DNA from: Trichoplax sp. H2
Taxonomy: Eukaryota
Direction: 5' to 3'
Assembly: GCA_003344405.1 (NCBI GenBank)
Contig: NOWV01000159.1
Span: forward strand, 124,001 to 181,153
Length of the DNA stretch: 57,153 nt
Every line of letters begins with the position of its first letter. Within the stretch, counting starts at the first letter, position 1. Position numbers and translations under genes: made by a program. The notes under the pieces were generated by a model. That model was not told the DNA's origin, did not search any database, and saw only the letters and a list, made by a program, of their open reading frames with translations. Shown here piece by piece: positions 17,871-43,480 of the stretch.

Positions 17871-19536
17871 ATGGTCTCTACAACTAGCAGCATCTATCAA
17901 ACTACAACGTCTACGGGGCATTTACCGCAGTGGTTAAAAAATTTTCCATGTAAGATAACTTATTGCATACTTATTTTACGAATGTGTAGATTTGTGCTTT
18001 ATAAATATTAAATGTGCTGGCCTGTTTAGATTCTTGTATGTATCACGATACAGTACAATATTTCGATTAGGCGATTTGGATGTTAATGCCGATATCATTT
18101 TTACTTCGATAAATACATTTTAGTGCCATTGCCAGCAATAATAGCGATAGCCGTAGCATGTGCTGTGCTTGTGTTCGCTTTAGTATTATGTATATGCTGT
18201 AAATGCTGTTGCAGAAGAAAAAAGCCAAAAAACGATAAAACTAAGCAAGGTTTCAAAGAAAAAGTTAGTTTACAGTCAGCGCAATCTTTGGGAGTAAGCT
18301 TAAAAGAGCGAGTTCAACCAGAAGTTGAAGGAGTGAATAAAGAAATGGAATTAGAATCAAAGCAAATAGACCCTTCTGAATATGTTGGGGAATTAAAATA
18401 TGCAATGGAATACGACTTTCAATCTTCCGAGTTAACTATTACCGTTTTGGAGGGAAAAAATTTTCCAGTAATGGATATAGGTGGAGCTTCAGACCCTTAT
18501 GTTAAAATTTATCTTTTACCAGATCGAAAGAAAAAATTGGTTACTAAAGTTCAGTACAAAACGCTAAATCCGATATTTAATGAATCAGTAACAATTAAAG
18601 TACCATACAGTGAATTACAAAATAGAACAGTACTATTCTCAGTATATGATCATGATAGATTTTCTAGACATGATGTTATCGGCCATTTACGTATTCCAAT
18701 CGCAGACGTAGATTTGTGCGAAAACTTAGAGCAATGGTCTGCACTGGAAAAGGCAGACTCAAGCAAGGAGGTATGAGTTTTAGCTGTCGGTTAGAACAGA
18801 TGTTCATATTGACTCTTTGCAACTTACATTCTACTAGCTCACACCGCTAAACGTAGGGTTATTATAATTAACCGCTATTTTTATTAACCCTAACCCAATG
18901 ATTGACACAGGGGAAATCGGAACTTGGTGAGTTATGTTTCTCCTTACGATATGTCCCAACCGGTGGAAAATTAACTATTGGAATTATGGAAGCTAAAGGA
19001 TTAAAAAAGATGGATGTCGGAGGATCGTCGGGTAAGACTATACATAACCAGCTATAGGCGCGTTCGACATGCGACACTTTTTTTAATCTTAAACTGTTAC
19101 AAAGCCTGAATTGTATTATAGCTGCATTGTCGATACATAATGTAATACGAGTATACGAGGTATTATAATTTAAGTAAAATCACAACTTCTTATAGAAATT
19201 ATGTTCGTTAACTGAAAAATTACATATCTAGATCCATACGTCAAAATTTCGTTAATTATTGATGGTAAGAGGATAAAGAAGAAAAAGACTATTGTAAAGA
19301 AGAGAACATTAGATCCTGTTTGGAACGAAGCGTATATGTTTAAAGTACCTTTCGAAAAAATTAAAGACACAAAAATTGTCTTGGCAGTAATGGACCATGA
19401 CAGGCTTGGTAAAAGTGACCTTATAGGGCAAGTCGTGGTAGGGGGGTCTGAATCAGGAGCTGAGTTGCGTCATTGGAGTGATATGCTGTCGTCTCCTAGA
19501 AGGCCGATAGCTCAATGGCATGTTCTCGTCGATTAA
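17871..19536 (+). CDS. SYT1: Synaptotagmin-1-like Ca2+ sensor, 383 aa
   Basis: Exons 17871-17949, 18124-18770, 18911-19031 and 19232-19536. Ser/Thr-rich luminal N-terminus, TM helix and Cys cluster CICCKCCC. C2[13 protein letters not shown]...[14 protein letters not shown]2B: MDVGGSSDPYVK...KKKKT...[14 protein letters not shown]-terminal [20 protein letters not shown] is typical of Syt1. Confidence 0.93.
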
Positions 19537-20619
19537 ATGGTGTGAATTTTAGGATTAAAGTAAAGTTAAAATTATAGTCGCTATCTGGAGAGTTGCAAAT
19601 ATTTAATTAATAGACGCTCTAGTGCCATTAATAAAATGATAATTTGTTGATTGAAGAACTTTAATTTTGAGTGGCAAAAATAAACACAATACGATAGAAT
19701 AAATGAAAGAGATAGTATTCTGGATGTTAAAGATTTTCAATCAAATACGTATAATAAAATCAGATATCACAATAGCTTTATTGAAACGTATAAGAAAGTA
19801 CATGTAGCTTGAATGTTACACAAATGCTGCTTGTAAATATGCAGTTATCGAATTTAATTCCGATCACACTTAAAACTAAGACAGCACGAGGTCCCATTTC
19901 ATTTACTGTGCGTAGATATCTGAAATTCTGAATTGATTTACAGTTAGTTATCGTTTTAGTGTAATGACTTCGATATGTTCGTTATAAACTGTCATACAAA
20001 CAGCTCCAACAAATTGTTGTATTAACTATATGCTGTAGTATGGCATGAGTATTATAATTAGATGTGTAATCGTAAGACTCACTATACATAAAATTACGAA
20101 TGTATCACATTTTGGAGAAAGAGGTGGGTTTTGTCACTAGTAAATGCAGTCTAGTATTCTGATGCGAACATCAAATTTACGATTTACGACACGTTAATAT
20201 CACTTACTGAATACAGTATTGTTGTAAATGGCATTTACGGAGCAGTGCCACAAACAACTAGCATATCTACTTATTTATTTATTTATTATATAACAGTGTA
20301 CAGAATAGCGACTTCGTGCACGATTACGTTATTGATCATGTGATTAGAAATAATCTATCATAATATAAGGATCTGTGCCTCTGGATCTTGATAATAGAAA
20401 CGTTTAAGGTGCAGCTTCACTAGTGGATATGCATGCGACTTCATACCAATAAGAATAAAAGAACTCAGAAAAGCTTATATAAACAACAACAATCCTTGCG
20501 TAAATGAGCTTAAACGAATATGTGTTTTTGGCTTCAATTAATAAATGAAAAAGAATAGGATTGACAATTTCCACGATATGTAACGATTTAAGGTGTATTT
20601 ACCGGTGACTAACTACGCC

Positions 20620-20880
20620 AAGTACTGTACTTACGCTGTACCTTGACCTGCCTGCTGCCTGTACCTGTATTGAGATCATATTGATTCTGACAGTTATAAC
20701 TGATATCAGCGCAACTGGCGCAACTCTGGTTCGTAATTTACTGTACAGTACTGTACTGTACTGTATACTGTACAATAGTCTTTTGCAGCAGTACAGTACA
20801 GTACTGTACAGTACAAGTATACTGTACTATACTGTACTGTAGGCTCAGTATCGTACTGTACAGTACAGTACAGTTTACGA
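20620..20880. repeat. (TACAG)n/(CTGTA)n block upstream of CEP290
   Basis: Dense head-to-head pentamer arrays at 20738-20873, ~300 bp upstream of the CEP290 start. Confidence 0.9.
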
Positions 20881-21180
20881 ACGTACGATATAGCGGAGCT
20901 CGGCATGCGCATCTGCGATTATACAGTGTACATTTTTATTTACAATAGTGCACTCCGATGAGCAGGAGCAAAACGAATTTACTACTGTATTTCTGCAGTT
21001 CGGGAATTTGCCAGTGAAGGCTGAAAACTATTTAATTAAGCTAGGTAAAAAAGCCTGATTTACGATGTAAAGAAAACTGGCATTAGCATACCGATTGAGA
21101 TTATTAATTGCCTAATTGAAATGCGAAATTAATTTACCAAAGTAGCTATGTATAGATTTTAATTAACATACTGTTACAGA

Positions 21181-33100: not shown

Positions 33101-34637
33101 ATTTTGTTTATAGAAAAAGTCTGATCAAGATGAAAGCCCAGACGCCGTCGGAACTTTAAGATCAAACTTTGTTAGTGAAACCGATGCAGCTGTAAGTCTT
33201 AAATTTAAGAATACTTTAAAGAATAAAGCATGGTAAAAACGAACTTAGTTTAAAAATTTAATGGTTTCTCAGGTTTTGAAAAAAAATCGGGATTATTGGG
33301 AGGATAATAAAAACTTGCAGAAGCGAGTTGATAAATTAAAACTAAAACTCGATGAAAAAGACTTTGAATTAAAAGCGGTTATTAAACGAAACGAAATGCT
33401 AACTGAAGCATTTAATAGGTAGCGTAATCTTAATTGAAATCGTCGAGCATTTTTATTTAAAAAGTAATTCTTACGAAACAATACAGCAATTTTTTTTTTT
33501 ATTCTAAGAATAAATCGTGAACGATCCGTAAAATTATCCAGTAAAGATCAAAATAAAGAAATATCGTTACTGCGAACCACCCAGCCGAATAATTCAGCAT
33601 TTACGTACGCCATTTATGCGTAGGAGAAACCAATTTTATGCTATAATGATATGTGCATCACTTGGAAAACATTAACTTGAAATTTTGAAATGTATAATAT
33701 TAGACCAGAACCAAATGAGAACTCTAATAAGGCTATCAACTCAATGAAAAGGATAATTCAAAAGCTGCAGTCTGAAAATGCATTTCTGAGAACTAGATTA
33801 GAAAATCATGAAATAACTTCGGTATAAAAGCTTACCTATTCATGCTGTGCTCGTCATAAAATTAAACGATTAGTTAGGGTTAGCGTTACGACGAGTCTGC
33901 TACAATGTTACATTATTTCAGACTACTACGAATATTTCTTCGCCGACTGTAAGCCCTAAAAAACTGGAAAATTCTTCTTCAGTAGCAAAAATTGTTGGAG
34001 AGAACAATTCTTTAAGAGTTGACAAAAAAAAGGTTACTCATATCTTTAAAATAATACTCTCATCAAACAAAAGTGAATAATTTCTTTAATAAGATTCTTA
34101 GCTGTTGTCAGTTTTTATTGGATATCATTAGATTTTTAAAAATGAAAATATAGCTTAGAACGAATTTTTCATCATAGAAAAATACTATAAATGTTATCTC
34201 GGAGTTTGAGTCACATTGAATTCAAATTTGAAAATTTAAAAAATTTTTAAATATATTTGCGAAATTTATTTTATTAAAAGGAGGTATTAGTGAAATGTCA
34301 GTGCTTTATATCGTTATTTAATATATCATTACCGTTACTACTATGTGTATGAATTGATACAGTCAATTAATTCAATTGAAGAGAAAATTTTTTCTGGAAA
34401 TAGCTCCAAGAAAAATGTACGAGATTATCAGTAGAAATTGGCAGACTAAACGTTGAAAGAGAAGAACTCCAAAATGATTTGAAGCGAATCGTAAGATGAA
34501 AGAAATTCTTCGTTAACATGCAACACTTAAAAACTTTGATATAAATTATAATAAATACTTTTTTGTTTCACTTTTACCAGAAAACAAGATTATTCGATCA
34601 AAACAATTTTGGTCGATCAGGAACCAAAAATGCCTAG
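21181..34637 (+). CDS. CEP290: Centrosomal/ciliary transition-zone protein CEP290 (~55 short exons, roughly 2000 aa, coiled coil)
   Basis: First coding exon 21181-21363 (INWGKLKKI ~ human INWKEIMKV). Diagnostic segments: [30 protein letters not shown] (~24410-24567), INDENEELRSRIGLSP and ALNRVLTGEIERLEEERIQLKK (~24690-24945), SDDKALIAKLYHQL (~29140-29290). Last exons 34404-34490 and 34581-34637 (TAG). Internal boundaries were not all verified. Confidence 0.92.
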
Positions 34638-35339
34638 TAAATCAGATTTGTAATCTATCTGAATAGCCTGGCTATATGACTGTACAGCTACTTTGGATGT
34701 ATTACAAGAATACAGAAAAATTTTTTCGTACGACTTCTTTTAGATTAAAAAAGTATTTAAGAAAGTACACCTTTTACGTCAGTAATTTCTAAAAATTTCT
34801 CACTTATACTGTAACTGATTAAATACAATTAACTTTCATTTCATTTATACATAGTTAATTCTAATTTTAATAACAGTTATGACATCGCCGTCAACATGTT
34901 TATTTTCTGATCATTTCAGAATTTTGACCAACTATTACAAATTAATATTTTCTAGTATTGATATTGCTACGTTTTTAATATCAAATTTAAGCAAGCATCA
35001 GCATTTACAGAAAGCATTTATGACAGAAAATTTTAAGGTACGAGTACATGTACGCATCGTATCTTAGTTTTAAGGCTTTATAGTATACGTATCTCAATTT
35101 TATTCAAAGTTGACATTAAGCACTTAAGGTGACAACACTCGAATATTTCCTAATAGCCATTTAATTCTCGTATGTAGAAGTTTCTATTATCATCTCAATT
35201 ATTAAAATTCTTATAAAAGCCAGTTTTATCTCAATTTGATGCAATTTTTTAAATTTATAGCTTTCCGAAGTAGTATCTTGAGACTTACATTAATGATTTT
35301 GACTATTTTATTTATTTACATATAATGGAGACACAGTAT

Positions 35340-36250
35340 CGTACGTATGACATCAACGGTTCATGCAGGGTATGCCAACGAGTGTTGCTTTTTTAGGATT
35401 TACAGGCTGATCACGATTTCCTTTGAAGGATCAGTGATGGTGTTAGTAGTACTGAAAAGACTAGCTTGTTTCTAAAAGTTGACAGGACATAATTTTAAAG
35501 TAAACTGTTTAATGATTAATGGAAGTACCTATTCACTGTTCTGAAAGTAGCCTTCAATTCTCGACTTCTGGTATAAATGGAGAAATTATAGACTTATTAC
35601 AATCTCTCGAATAATTCCGTCAATACTTGCGTTCGTCTTTATCGATGATAAAACCGCAATAAATAGTAATGCTTATTAGACCATTACCACAAAATCTTCG
35701 TAAAACTCTGGATTGATAGTCTTTGTAAGTTGTAGTTCTTTAGATTTCTATTTTCTCTGGCAAGTATGAATCAAAGTGTAGGTGTCTAGCTGGTTAGTCC
35801 AAACGTTCGGAAGTTTTGATGCTCGAACTATGGTTACCTTTTGGTATTATTCCGCATATTCATATTGAACATAGAATGTCGTATTTTTCATCAAGCTGCA
35901 CATCGACTGATACTATGAAAAATTTAGAGAATTTTTAGTTTCCGGTTGTAATGCGATTATTGTTAGCAGCTTCATTGCAGTCTCCTTATGCATTAATAAG
36001 TGATGTTATAATTATTAGTGATTTCTACGTCCTGACCTAAAACGTCGACTACCTAACCTAACATGAAGGCGCGAAACTGTTGCGATTTTCATAGTGGGCG
36101 TTCTTCCACGAATTTCCAGCTATATATATATAACTATAGTACAGTACTTTTATTTTCTTTTTGAATTTGCAATTCGCATGCAGGAAACCACAAAATATAA
36201 GAAAAGATCCGATTACTGTATAATTTAAATTCAGCCGTTGTCAACAACAA
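35340..36250 (-). pseudogene. Decayed synaptotagmin-like gene (TM + C2A, possibly start of C2B)
   Basis: From 35876 the minus strand reads FYVQYEYAE*YQKVTIVRASKLPNVWTNQLDTYTLI/YLPEKIEI*RTTTYK/TINPEFYEDFV.../FIIDKDE/SIDGIIREIVISL*FLHL. This aligns with the C2A pattern of neighbouring SYT7 ([23 protein letters not shown]...DPF...LLPDK...NLNP...DYD...IGEV) but carries several stops and frameshifts. A hydrophobic+basic stretch VIGSFLIFCGFLHANCKFKKKIK lies at ~36216-36148. Confidence 0.62.
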
Positions 36251-37667
36251 GGCTAAATTTATCTCCTTTGTTAATACCGTTAACATAATGACAAAATAAA
36301 GTTTAAAAAACATTTTTCAAGTCATGTATGCATTAGGTAAATTTATGGGACATCTTAAGAGATACTAGATGATTCGGAAGAATAAACAACGGCAAATTAA
36401 ATTTTGCTATCGGTGTTAATATACCGTTGTTAAGGTTTTTAAGAAGCTTTTTACGTAAACTACAAAGCCGAATCTGAATCAAGCGAATAAAAGTACGAAG
36501 ATAAACTATTTAGCAGTTTAAGTAGACACTACTATAAAGATATATTTTGATACACGATATAATCCATAGCACTTTTCTGAGCAGTGCATATTTAAATACT
36601 CACATGTACTATAGTATATTACGTACAGTATAACACAGCAACTACCTACTATATTAATTCATGGCCAGGGCTCGTAAATATAGTAAAATATAACCTTTTA
36701 GTACCTAACTACGCACACGCAAGTTATGCTAGAAAAATCTTTCCAACGAATATCGCGGGCAGCACAGTACTATCGTGACTTTATAAAATTATTAATGATG
36801 ACTATAATCACGCTCCTATGGGCCCTTTAAGAAGATGTAAACAGTGACTCGGTCAATCAAGAAGTTACGTCATCGCTACAAATATAATCTTTAAATGAAA
36901 ATGATTTGCCATTATAGCTATGACCACCACTACTACATGTCTTACGGACAAACTTGCGAATATACTGTACTTTAAAGAATTAGGAGGAAAGTACTGTACA
37001 GGTACATCGGTATTAATTTATAAAGGTGGTCTATTCATTAATTCAATACTTAGCGTTAAGGTGCTCTTATTATTAATTAGTTCATGAGTATTATTTTACG
37101 TATGCTGTACTAATATTAGGCAATGCAGTAAAATACGTTTAAAATAAGAATTCTTCATCTGGCAAAAATTATGTACACAAATTAAATTTAATTTACTGTC
37201 AACCTTTATTAGGATCTGTAAAGTTACAGTCGGAAATTTTTAATTTTTGAACATTTGGTCAAAACAAGGTGTATCGATAAGGGTAATCGGTGGTCAAGTT
37301 TAGTTATAGAAACCCTGGCATTACATTCTCTGAAATATGAACATAAAAAGCCACATGTTTCAATATTTATTAAATAAATCGCAGTTACGAAACTGCTTTT
37401 TCTAACATAGCTCTCCCTTTCAGAAACATAGGGCGTTATTTTTTATGTTGTACTGTATGATGTGTATGATTTGTAAACTTTTCTGTAGATGGAACATTTT
37501 GATCAAAATTCTCTGTTTTAATTAAGTGTAACAGCAGAGAGGAAAATAGCGAGCAGAGAAAATCGTAAAATTTGATCTATAGGATTGTTAAACAAACGAA
37601 GGAGTATCTACAAATTTAAAATAATAAATTAATATTTATTAACATTGCTGTAGTCATATCGAAGTTT

Positions 37668-40600
37668 TCAAGTATGTATCATATGCCATTTTGCAACTGG
37701 TCGCCTAGGAGATGCTAACATTTCTTTCCAATGTTTTAACTCGTAACCCGTCGCTCGAGTTCCTAGCGAGATATGTCCAAGGCAATCGTTTGCTGATAAC
37801 TTATCATAATCCATCACATGAATAATTAATGAAATATCTCTTAGACGTTCAAATGGTATATTGAACATAAATGATTCATTAAATACGGGATTTAGACTTC
37901 TTCTTTTCACTGTAGTTTTCTTTTTTTCTAATCTTTTATCCCCATACATTAAAGATAGCTTAACGTACGGATCTGTGTGCAAATAGAAAGGTTTGCATTA
38001 CATTTTTACCACATTCCAGCTTTTGAAACTATTAATGACGTACCAGTATAGTGCTTAAGCACCTACCTGTAGACCCTGAAATATCCATGATCTTTAGATT
38101 TCTGCAGCGCATTACAACTATTGTTAAGTCACCGGTGGTTGGATGATAGCATAGCGACAGCAGCAGATCACCTAATTTGCCCTAAGAGAGTGGGTTTTTA
38201 TATGAAAACTGTAATACCATAAATTACTTTGGCATTAAAGGAACTGATAATGAAAATATATTACCAAAACAATGAATACTAACTGAGATCAGTCTACAGA
38301 CAGGTGCTGCTAATATTAATCCGACTTTATAGTTTATATCTAGGGTAATATTTTTATATGCGCCAACAGTATATTAAATAAATGTAGAGTTCAAATTAAT
38401 GGTATGGGGCCACGGTGATGTATACGTATGAGTGAGTACATACTCCATGGCTATGAAAAAAGCGCAGCATAAAATTAATTGGAAAGAATATCTTGTGTTA
38501 TTATAAATAATACCTCAAAATTTTATCGGTAAGCCTCGTTTGGACCGACCATTATAGTGTCAAAAGTACGAATATTTGATTATTAAGGATGACTATGTAA
38601 TTTATTTAATGATACTCTGAAATATATCAAATTAAAAGTCAAAAAATCTACGGACCACTTTTAAAATAACTAAAATTAATTTTTGACTTAAGCGCTATAA
38701 CCACGGAACAGCAGTGCAAGCGTTATTGCACAGTATTATAGGATTTTACAGAACATTATCTCTAAATTAATAATAACGATAATATATCGGCATTATAGGT
38801 ACGGTCATGTTAACGATTATAACAATAAGTATTTTCAATATGATAAAGTAATAATTTGAAATGGCTCACTTACAGAAATTGTAAGACATTCTAAACTATA
38901 TTATGTAGACGCGCTTTCCAATATGTTCAATCTACATAAAGTCATAATTCACGAATAAACTCTTTTTACGAGTATTAGTTATTATGTTATTATATATATA
39001 ATATTCAGTAAACTTAAAATTATACTACGTATCTAAAGATGGCATAACACGGTATCTAATTATTAAACGAATCTGTATGATCCATATAGAAATTTATATA
39101 TAACTGTTATATGATGAAAAAATTTGATTTAGCTATTCTGCGGTGAAATCAATGACTGAGAAGAGTAGTAGCTAAGTTTTCAAGTACAGATTATTGCTAT
39201 CTGCATTCATTTTTAAACACTTCTGGCATTTGAAAAGTGCTATGATGAACGTACGATATAGAAGAAATCGCAATTTGTTACTGGCGTTAAATCTTTATCC
39301 AAGATAACGCTACAGAAAACAGTAACGATTTTATTGTGCTTGGATGGATTAGTTATATAATTATTACTTTAACTTTTCCTTTTTGATAAATACCGAAGGA
39401 GCGTTTTCTAGCAGCTAGATGTTATTTTGATACAGATTTGGCTCTTTGCAAGATATATAGACTTATTACCTGTTATTCCCTAGTGCATAAAGTACATAAG
39501 CCAGGATTGAACGGTTTCGGGAATCTATCAAAAAAGTTGGCCATCTACACCTTGCAAGCAGTTGCTAAAACTTTTGGCTCCATTTTATGTGGTATTCGTG
39601 TGATTATAATCTCATTCTAAAAGTACTATAGGGTTTTGTCATAACTTACTTTGATAATATGTGCTAATTTAATTAGTTCATTGCAGCTGCCAGTGATTTA
39701 TATTGGGCAAATGAATCTACATTCTTGTATACAAGCCCATGAAAATACATAAAGTGTTGCTAAAAAGCAAGTGACAGTAGCAAATTTAACCATTTTTTCT
39801 TGTAAAGTTCTTCAAACTGTGAAGTAATTAGTAGAATTTCTTTTGATCTCGTACGTATGACTCCTACCTAGTAGCGCAATCCCCATTAATAGATATGATG
39901 CTGGAGAGTAACATTTTCAACAGTTGCTGAAGCTGTAATCCGATATTACATATCTTTAAGGCTTTATTATCAAATCTTGAGGAGAAACAGCTTAAAGAAA
40001 TCTAGCGAAGTTAGGTGCATGCAAGCTAATGGATTTCTTTTCTTAGTTTATAACTTATTGATACTACTTTTCCTTCTTTACTTACGCCTATTTATTGAAA
40101 ATGTGTATTTTGGGGGTAAGCAATAGTACCGTGCTTAAACGAAAATGTTAACTTGCTTCTTCGTAACACGTCACTCTTTTAATACTTTCCTGTATATAGT
40201 ATAGTTATACTAATGAAATTGTAAATTGTAATTTTCTGCTTACCAAAATAATTAGTCAGACTTATTTTAGAAGACAGAAAAGTCCGGCTTTATGTCACAA
40301 GTAATGAAAGGTGTTCAATTCATTTATTTGAACTTACCGTTATTAATAGATTCTATAAATTTTATGAGCAATAATCTACGACCTACCGCGTAAATAGGTC
40401 TTTAAGAACTAACAAATCTTTGAAAGGGTTTTTAAATCGCTTACCCGGGAATTACATGGCTGCAGGTCTCTTTTAAACATTACTTCGTCTCCTAATTCTA
40501 TTTCTCCCATATCGAGATTTACTTCACCAATTGGATCATTTCTGGAAAATCTATCATAATCTAAGACCTGCAAGTGAAGTATTCGACTTTGTAACTTGTT

Positions 40601-41271
40601 TGCTGGGAAGCCTTCAAAGGCAAATGTTTCGCCCCACACAGGATTTAAGTTTTTTCTTTTGACTTTAGTAGTGAGTTTATGCTTTTTATCTGGTAACAGC
40701 ATTGTTTTAACAAATGGATCAGAAGTACCACCGAGATCTTTCGCGGGTAAATTAAATGCTCGCATAATTTTAACGATCAACGTCATTTTAGAATAATCAT
40801 AACTTAAAGAAAACTGTATTGAGCCGAGGTCTTCTGATAAAGTTTGTTCTTCTGGCTCCTCTTCTGTTACTTTTGTTACGGTTGGTGCTTGACTGTCGCT
40901 TCCAAGTTTGGCGTATCCTAGCGCTAAATTACAGAGTGTTGAATAAATTTACAAATTATTCTATACAAATAATATTTTCATTAAAAGTGAAACTACATCG
41001 ACTAATCTAATATTGAAAGATAAGCAGCAGTAACTCGTTATTTATTACCTTTCACGGATTGTGAACTTAGTTGCGTATTATTTGAAGAATTTGTAGTATT
41101 GTGTATTTTTTGATATTTTACTTTATTCATAAAATTTGTCGTAAAATTTTGACGCGATGATCCACGACTGCTATTTGACTTTCGTCGCTTAAAACACCAA
41201 GTGCATGACACTAATAGAATTAACATAACAGCAGAGCAGCTACCACTGATGATAACGGAGAGAGCATTCAT
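37668..41271 (-). CDS. SYT7: Synaptotagmin-7, 371 aa
   Basis: Exons 41271-41049, 40917-40445, 38181-38067 and 37972-37668. C2[38 protein letters not shown]...FEGFP...[18 protein letters not shown] is near-identical to vertebrate SYT7. C2B: MDISGSTDPYVK...[14 protein letters not shown] probable 5'UTR exon ends at the donor near 41511. Confidence 0.95.
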
Positions 41272-43070
41272 CCCTATTTTTGGATAAAATCAAGGGCAAA
41301 GTTATTGAAGGAATCAACCGTGCAATTATAGGTTTTTGTTTGACACTCGAAGTCATTCAATCAACTTGACTTCACAGAGAAAATTCAGTGTCCACTGGTG
41401 GATCCACTATACACGTAACAATTCTTAATTTTCCAACTTGTCAGCCAGATTGGTATTTCACTAAGATCTTATCTAATGTACTTTATGAGCATTGAGAGAT
41501 AAGAAAATTACCTTCCGTGCGACTACCCTCTGATTACTTCCACAGCCCTTGTTTAATTTCTTGCAATGACTTTACAACTTATAAGAAACGTACCATCACT
41601 ACGAAAATTTCATAAATTTTCTTTGTTCGTTCTATTGTTTCAATAGCACGTATTGTTAAAGACATTCTCTGATATTAATATCAACGTTATTGATTTCTTA
41701 CAGTTAATTATAATTATTACTCTATTGTGAGCCATTTGCGTCACGAAGTTTGATTCTGAGTTAGCAATTTTTTTATACAGCACAATCTACCGATCAAACT
41801 TGAGAAGTAACGTATATCGAAGTACTAACAGTATTCAAGTGTAGGAATTGCACCTATACGAAAAGAAAAGCACTAATATGTGCGTAAATAATTCGTACAA
41901 AATTAAATAAAGGGCAGTACTTTGCGACGGCACTTTTTCTTTTCCTTTGACATGATCGATAATTATAATCGTTAAGCTACATTGGGGCAGTATTTTGTTT
42001 ACTATCAATCTTTATTCTTAGACCAGGTGCTTTGGGATCCTTTGTTGATTCACTGAAAATCAATATAGCAAATTTCAGGAATCTACAGTCGAGTAATACA
42101 CGCCAATTTGAGAACAGTCGCAACAGTATTACGCGTTATCTCCATTCGCAACAGATCATAATGATCATATACATGTTAAGTCCGTGCACTGTCCGTTACA
42201 TGCATGCGTGACAGTCTGCGGCATTTACAGAATTAGATTCTTGGTTATGTTCGAGTTGAGGTAGAAGCAAAGTAGGTAATGATGGCGATGACTTAGTAGA
42301 GATAACCCATTCAGCATTACTAATTACCGTGCGGTACGAGCGGATAGCCTAGTAGGAATTCGAATCTTCACTTGCTATACTGTATGTGCAGTACACTGTA
42401 TAGTACTCTAGCGCTATTACAATGACAGTAATCATAATCTTTCGAGACACGATGATTTTATAAATATAATTTCTATGGGCGTCAAGAAAATACTACTTTT
42501 ATGTACGAGAGTATACCGGCTAAACTTGTCACAGTGAGTTGCGTGAGCAGTATAATGCAACGATGAGGTTTCGTAAAACAGTTACTTAAATTTATGTACT
42601 TGGCAAATACAGCAGTTTAAGCAATCATGGGAACGCTAAAGTCATTAAGAATTGATTGATCTATTAATAATAATGAAATTTAACAATAACTTTCTGGTTT
42701 ATATTATTTCGTGCTTGGTAAACATTTTACTTTAAAGTAGGTTTGCAACTTTATTTACCAATAATTATAATTATATCTTCTACTTTATAGGAAAGAAAAT
42801 GAATCTATTGCGTCAACCTTCCGTAATTTATGGCGAAAAATGCTATAATGTCATAGTTCTACAGTAACAGAAGTATAATTCAATGTTACGTTTAATTTAG
42901 TATTTCGCATAATCTTATTGATCGAGAAGTGAAGGTCTCGGACACGACTAGTGCACATTCTACAGTACCCGCTGACTGAGCGAGTACGGTTTGCACATTT
43001 TTTGAATAGCCTCGTAAACTGCATCTCCAGCATGTCCTGTTCCTAGTGCTGGTGATAGAAGTTTTTCAGG

Positions 43071-43480
43071 TCTACAGTACTGTACTGTACAGTACAGTAG
43101 TGTAAGTAAACGGTACGTTACAGTCTATTATTATTACGGTATTGTACAGGATAGTACAGTACTGTACTGTACAGTAAAGTACAGTACTGTACTGTATACT
43201 GTACAGTACTGCACAGCGACAGTACTGTACAGTACAGTAATGTACAGTACTGTACAGTATACTACAGTATACAGTAACGTACTGTACTGTACTGTACAGT
43301 ACAGTATAGTAGTATAATGTCCCAGTACTACACTACTACAGTATAGTACAGTACTGTACAGTATAGTATATAGTACAGCATGTTACGTACTGTATGTATA
43401 TATACAGTATACAGTATATACTATAATACAGTATGCCCATGATAGCCATATGATAACAGCAATACAGTACAGTATATAGT
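43071..43480. repeat. Largest (TACAG)n/(CTGTA)n block; between divergent SYT7 and BTBD10
   Basis: ~400 bp made almost entirely of TACAG/CTGTA/TATAG variants with repeated AGTACT and TGTACA inversion points. It ends ~100 bp before the BTBD10 ATG. Confidence 0.92.

Follow-up and report, generated by a model that had tools for sequence, protein, structure and literature searches.

Synaptotagmins (Syts) act generally in vesicle fusion. Among 7 of the 8 Trichoplax entries in supplement 1 of Craxton (2010, PMC2823689), only Syt1 and Syt7 of Trichoplax adhaerens lie on the contig concerned here, and conserved intron positions and phases are described in that work as diagnostic for Syt genes. The T. 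adhaerens Syt21/22/23 of the same source, which are our loci L002, L004 and L007, were taken together with the metagenome locus L051 as a comparison group of divergent invertebrate Syts, and human SYT14L is described there as a Syt-family pseudogene. Najle et al. (2023, PMC10580291) tabulate gene numbers for Syt1, CEP290 and Syt7 that are consecutive in three placozoan gene sets (TrH2 007645/6/7, Hhon g03362/3/4 and HoiH23 007130/29/28), with an F-box/WD40 gene and BTBD10 next in two of the three. If this numbering follows position, the Syt1-CEP290-Syt7 block is conserved, and these tables place no annotated gene between CEP290 and Syt7. Our literature search found no published description of a Syt remnant at this place and nothing on synaptotagmin, CEP290 and synteny together.

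The window analysed here is the whole stretch of 57,153 nucleotides of Trichoplax sp. H2 (contig NOWV01000159.1, positions 124,001 to 181,153), which is AT-rich (32% GC) and contains a long plus-strand coiled-coil gene between Syt1 and Syt7. The name CEP290 for this neighbour comes from the tables of PMC10580291, and Pfam searches with nine of its single exons gave weak coiled-coil matches only. Low-complexity repeats of the TACAG/CTGTA type at 20600-20950 and 43000-43400 produced spurious frames rich in Tyr, Cys, Thr, Val and Gln. The features, in window coordinates, are as follows.

18123-19537, plus strand: intact Syt1 from its TM exon on (context; SYT1 below), matching T. adhaerens Syt1 of PMC2823689 supplement 1 by eye.
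34581-35909, plus strand: last exon of CEP290 (stop near 34637) and contiguous RNA, likely 3' UTR, antisense to the C2A remnant, from a contig of sequencing run X18.
35320-35420, minus strand: possible first C2B exon of 101 nt bounded by AG..GT, with similarity at chance level.
35421-35529, minus strand: candidate C2A/C2B intron, with a donor AG|GTACTT at 35528, fitting in position.
35530-35876, minus strand: decayed C2A domain, from profiles, PDB matches and six aligned pieces.
35877-36153, minus strand: former linker, unalignable and possibly an intron, placed by position.
36154-36219, minus strand: TM remnant, Cys and basic cluster as in a Syt-type N-terminus, from a pattern test.
37668-41270, minus strand: intact Syt7 (context; SYT7 below), matching T. 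adhaerens Syt7 of PMC2823689 supplement 1 by eye, with the last intron spliced in RNA.

We read the stretch between CEP290 and SYT7 as an old, unannotated, non-processed synaptotagmin-type pseudogene, with a probability of roughly 85%. The remnant shared with T. adhaerens Syt7 and Syt1 (Craxton 2010, PMC2823689) the TM-Cys-basic N-terminus and the order of the C2A motifs, and among its neighbours it had the Gly-to-Trp spacing of Syt1, a donor-like site just past C2A and the strand of Syt7. It differed from both in its low identity (22-26%), six stops, five frameshifts, lack of the first Asp ligand (D1), undetectable C2B and lack of DNA similarity. With the divergent invertebrate Syts it would share the character of a lineage-restricted, fast-diverged Syt gene, although the C2A frames of L002, L004, L007 and L051 are open and the grouping of the remnant with L002 was weak and changed between trees. 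The likeness to SYT14L is that of a disabled Syt-family copy, but SYT14L is a retrocopy with a known parent (PMC2823689), whereas no parent can be identified for the remnant, in which an intron position seems to have been retained.

Homology to the C2 domain was carried by profiles. Run against the whole genome in six frames, PF00168 matched the minus strand at 35643-35840 in uncorrected frame with 24.7 bits (E 0.0017), above the curated cut-off of 22 bits, and three stops lay within the match. The same frame with its stops written as X was assigned to the C2 domain by hmmscan at E 3.1e-5, and all 21 of its PDB matches counted at E<=10 were synaptotagmin or Doc2 entries (best E 1.7e-4). With a frameshift-aware profile built from six C2A domains the remnant scored 68.8, the shuffle maximum being 52.6 (0/300 shuffles reached it), and the best of 120 window tiles without Syt scored 53 against 69. 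Both checks proposed in the sequence-only reading, the C2 HMM and a frameshift-tolerant comparison, came out in favour of the homology it had claimed. The peptides that it quoted were all found on the minus strand and in the order given. Its 23-residue match to SYT7 (35876-35808, minus strand) does exist, with 9/23 residues identical, but was weak alone (tblastn E 2.2 within the window; reached by 16/200 shuffles), and the identity of the remnant to any Syt C2 domain in our panels was 17-26%. Judged at the level of sequence by the profiles, which settle the point, the C2 homology of the remnant is genuine. A chance resemblance arising in AT-rich 3' UTR DNA would account for the weak single-sequence matches to SYT7 and SYT1 of the window, as well as for the chance-level C2B claims described below; against it stand the whole-genome Pfam match, the shuffles and tiles, and, independently of these, the TM motif that precedes C2A on that strand. 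We give this explanation almost no credence, and for C2A it is already refuted.

Structural anatomy of the remnant was that of a Syt-type C2A domain behind a single N-terminal TM segment and a linker. The six pieces of C2A, from 35876 to 35530, aligned across the whole domain, in frames that were hand-picked to fit the profile and are least certain at 35690-35650 and 35545-35530. They contained six stops (35849, 35742, 35678, 35675, 35556 and 35535), of which well-aligned columns hold only three (35849, 35742 and 35556), and five frameshifts (near 35765, 35721, 35651, 35625 and 35587). The TGA at 35556 occupies the position of the C2A-terminal Trp of SYT1, with equal spacing. About 280 nt upstream of C2A, the TM-Cys-basic motif sits inside a 60-codon stop-free frame (36240-36061), which is the longest stop-free run across the remnant. 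The TM-like stretch noticed earlier was borne out by a pattern found in 3/228 window tiles, those of SYT1, SYT7 and the remnant, and in 0/500 shuffles; this pattern was written after inspection of the sequence and its passing thresholds (2.0-2.4) were chosen post hoc, the first threshold of 2.3 having missed the remnant at an observed 2.26. In the linker stretch, a pyrimidine-rich acceptor-like site was present near 35912. Taken with the C2 profiles, the TM pattern upholds the earlier description of a divergent synaptotagmin-type paralogue that adjoins SYT7 on the same strand.

Downstream of C2A, a donor-like site was located 25 nt past the Trp position (8 codons and 1 nt), the corresponding distances being 27 nt (9 codons) in SYT7 and 33 nt (11 codons) in SYT1; the phase of this candidate donor is off by one, and the RNA contig was unspliced across the candidate intron. 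The candidate C2B exon measures 101 nt against 103 nt in the corresponding stretch of SYT7, and its GC content of 41.6% was reached by 2/50 non-coding tiles, both of which are hints only. The C2B start suggested earlier at 35425-35345 did not rise above chance, since 629-640 of 1000 shuffles scored equally in local alignment, as did 411 of 5335 control segments for the AG..GT-bounded exon. A second C2B exon was not detectable (372-451 of 500 shuffles), though there is space for one. Because C2B could not be demonstrated, the tandem-C2 architecture of the former gene can only be presumed; decay or deletion could explain the missing domain.

The reality of the lesions was examined over 34300-38300 in four of the 24 listed sequencing runs (X1, X2, X18 and X19). 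The X1 DNA contig was identical to the window over 35214-35857 with 0 differences, although the window itself may derive from the X1 sample, and the X2 DNA contig, from another study and under another organism label, matched 35214-35909 with two substitutions and 0 gaps (among the substitutions listed, one is at 35777). The X18 contig showed the shared frame breaks and an extra 1-nt deletion at 35765. Second alleles differed in length by 4 nt near 35880-35989 and 36195-36312, the C2A haplotypes carried at least three listed substitutions (two silent, one replacement) in addition to the 1-nt deletion, and no lesion-free haplotype was present among those sampled. The stops and frameshifts are real, and an assembly artefact is ruled out. 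Skipping a single intron of at least 55 nt did not restore the frame, as only 4/137 such skips were stop-free and the longest gave 14 codons. Disabling mutations shared by X1, X2 and X18 therefore bear out the earlier claim that the gene is pseudogenised. The opposite reading, in which the gene is live and its stops and indels are assembly errors or are spliced out, would draw on the RNA cover from X18 (to 35909 and at 36012-36312) and X19 (to 35544 and at 36207-36429), but the DNA contigs of two studies are gapless across C2A, the RNA contig has the same frame breaks plus one and is unspliced there, and no single intron rescues the frame. This reading is largely refuted, and its probability is close to negligible.

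An alternative exon of SYT7 was also considered and set aside, as neither RNA run covered 36444-37113, though the DNA runs did, and the SYT7 RNA contigs ended at 37187 and 37312; the missing RNA cover is no proof against such an exon. Separately, at 38184 in the SYT7 intron, an X18 contig passed from the exon that opens C2B into letters matching the window at about 39870-39895, as compared by eye, suggesting an alternative, unannotated exon in the large SYT7 intron.

The age of the loss was estimated with a simple neutral model (kappa 3, 30% GC in the simulations), with the indel rate taken from the figures of 1% SNPs and 0.1% indels in Kamm et al. (2018, PMC6057997). For six stops in about 113 codons, P was 0.007 when 0.1 substitutions per site were assumed and 0.03 when 0.15 were, and the indels, at most nine, would be unlikely above about 0.45, which places the death of the gene roughly 0.15-0.45 substitutions per site ago. 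The three best-aligned stops alone would allow about 0.05-0.1. Since dS between two Trichoplax lineages is 0.024 (Kamm et al. 2018, PMC6057997), death would have come well before the sampled haplotypes split, and the three-stop estimate is still older than that split. The earlier word "recently" does not hold, given a P below 0.01 for the stops at less than 0.1 substitutions per site and the fact that no haplotype repairs the lesions. The mean CDS distance between Trichoplax and Hoilungia is 28.5% (PMC6067683), and death may have come before or after the split of these two.

As for parentage, the remnant scored 40 against its own SYT7, 47 against SYT1, 57 against mammalian SYT7 and 60 against the Syt21-like L002; the closeness to Syt7 expected of a Syt7-subfamily member was thus not seen. 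The top single scores were those of L002 (60) and L051 (35 bits). Decayed copies were simulated under a simple model (kappa 3, 30% GC), with the parent held fixed. At d<=0.5 the parent was outscored in 0-5% of the runs, and among simulated dead copies matched on profile score the observed score gap appeared in 0/363 of SYT7 and 0/319 of SYT1. Because simulated dead copies never showed this gap, divergence at the protein level would have preceded the death of the gene. A C2 phylogeny, which had been proposed earlier, was run: the remnant, as the longest branch, joined L002 weakly in one tree (84/77) and SYT1 in another (51/39), while a clade with SYT7 was not rejected (p-AU 0.379 and 0.122). 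The best trees differed between runs, the placement was unstable, and no parent could be assigned. No DNA-level similarity to SYT7 or SYT1 was detected by blastn, a word-based first look revealed no second copy of the remnant in the genome, and there was no close relative among 26 C2 stretches (of 77 genome matches) and 59 metagenome loci, the best reaching 35 bits. Of the description "tandem to SYT7", the position and strand stand; for descent from SYT7 the trees gave neither proof nor rejection (p-AU 0.12-0.38). A duplicate of SYT7 or SYT1 that never functioned and decayed for a very long time would agree with the place beside SYT7 on the same strand, with the SYT7 clade that was not rejected and with the tree that joined SYT1. 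However, decayed copies stay nearest their parent, and the gap was absent from all 682 matched simulations, which makes such an origin very improbable.

D1-D5 denote the Asp ligands of a C2 domain. Asp codons were present at 35786 (D2), 35643 (D3), 35637 (D4) and 35621 (probable D5), so that three to four of the five C2A positions survive. D1 is missing, as stated earlier for loop 1: the loop is one codon short and the aligned codon is GTT, a single change from GAT. The conclusion once drawn from this, a probably Ca2+-independent protein, does not follow, because at 0.2-0.3 substitutions per site of neutral decay only 2-8% of intact five-Asp sites would still have every Asp, and the missing D1 is thus no evidence for a Ca2+-independent ancestor. 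The three to four surviving Asp lean mildly towards a Ca2+-binding ancestor, although the ancestral state of the site is unreadable because decay removes Asp codons.

The RNA over the remnant appeared to belong to CEP290, a point absent from the sequence-only reading. A 2747-nt contig of X18, a run taken as RNA by guess and showing two spliced joints, was spliced on the plus strand from 34490 to 34581 (GT..AG) and then ran unspliced to 35909 over the whole of C2A; X19 shared this joint, with sparser cover as far as 35544. The last CEP290 coding exon adds only about 18 codons. Low-depth contigs covered the TM region in both runs, ending at 36312 and 36429, and plus-strand AATAAA signals occur at 36295 and 36381. 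CEP290 RNA thus appears to extend 1.3-1.8 kb beyond the stop codon. A 35-nt stretch at 34843-34877 was common to another locus in all four runs, with loose ends on both sides, and is a short repeat. A long CEP290 3' UTR antisense to the remnant is the simplest reading; because the contigs are unstranded, the cover may come from more than one transcript, and a residual minus-strand transcript is possible. The DNA might instead have been kept for a role at the RNA level, as an element of the CEP290 3' UTR or as an antisense minus-strand transcript from the old promoter. The contigs over the TM region fit this, as their ends would agree either with the AATAAA signals or with a minus-strand start upstream of an ATG at about 36284, but indels segregate freely in the region, Rfam gave 0 matches at E<=1, the contigs are unstranded, and there was no sign of conservation. 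We regard such a role as improbable.

The intact orthologue for which the sequence-only reading had called did not appear in protein searches that cover placozoans poorly. A phmmer search of 1.84 billion representatives returned one match, a 1124-aa multi-C2 protein (E 1.1e-4), and a word search yielded 0/22 candidates. These negatives are weak, for when the C2A exon of SYT7 was searched as a control, the best 120 of 1205 matches contained no placozoan-named protein and nothing above 64% identity. A metagenome scan with the last exon of SYT7 gave 59 loci with a best segment identity of 32-57%; as none was placozoan-like, no syntenic region was available in the metagenomes. One of the metagenome contigs (Ga0307391_10000868, frame +3) contained an open frame of 1719 residues in which at least eight Syt-like C2 domains stand in tandem, most of them with the full set of Asp ligands.

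Returning to the pseudogene reading, we propose that a Syt gene would have been duplicated at the DNA level within or into the Syt1-CEP290-Syt7 block, and that the copy would have functioned as a protein while drifting about equally far from all present paralogues. The living gene probably encoded a membrane-anchored tandem-C2 protein of vesicle fusion, whose C2A could have bound Ca2+. Function would then have been lost, and neutral decay of roughly 0.15-0.45 substitutions per site would have erased C2B. Today no protein would be made, and the remnant DNA would serve as the 3' trailer of CEP290. Being long dead and without a protein product, the remnant counts as an ordinary pseudogene whose evolutionary interest is modest, and since function is untestable without an intact orthologue, it has little import beyond annotation.

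A larger claim can be put forward only as a doubtful one: the remnant may be the last trace of a separate placozoan Syt lineage whose C2A was Ca2+-competent and which gave the conserved Syt1-CEP290-Syt7 block a third sensor. Such a gene would survive intact in a placozoan that is early-branching or has so far escaped sampling, and would have been lost in Trichoplax, perhaps as the 3' end of CEP290 extended over the third Syt. If this were true, the nerveless placozoans would have shed part of an ancestral toolkit of regulated exocytosis. Apart from this larger claim, placozoan Syt1 and Syt7 serve as evidence on the secretion machinery before neurons, and counts of the repertoire are drawn from intact genes alone. 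With a further, decayed Syt in the same conserved block, the family is seen to have turned over in the Trichoplax lineage too, and the remnant provides one concrete locus to compare across placozoan genomes.
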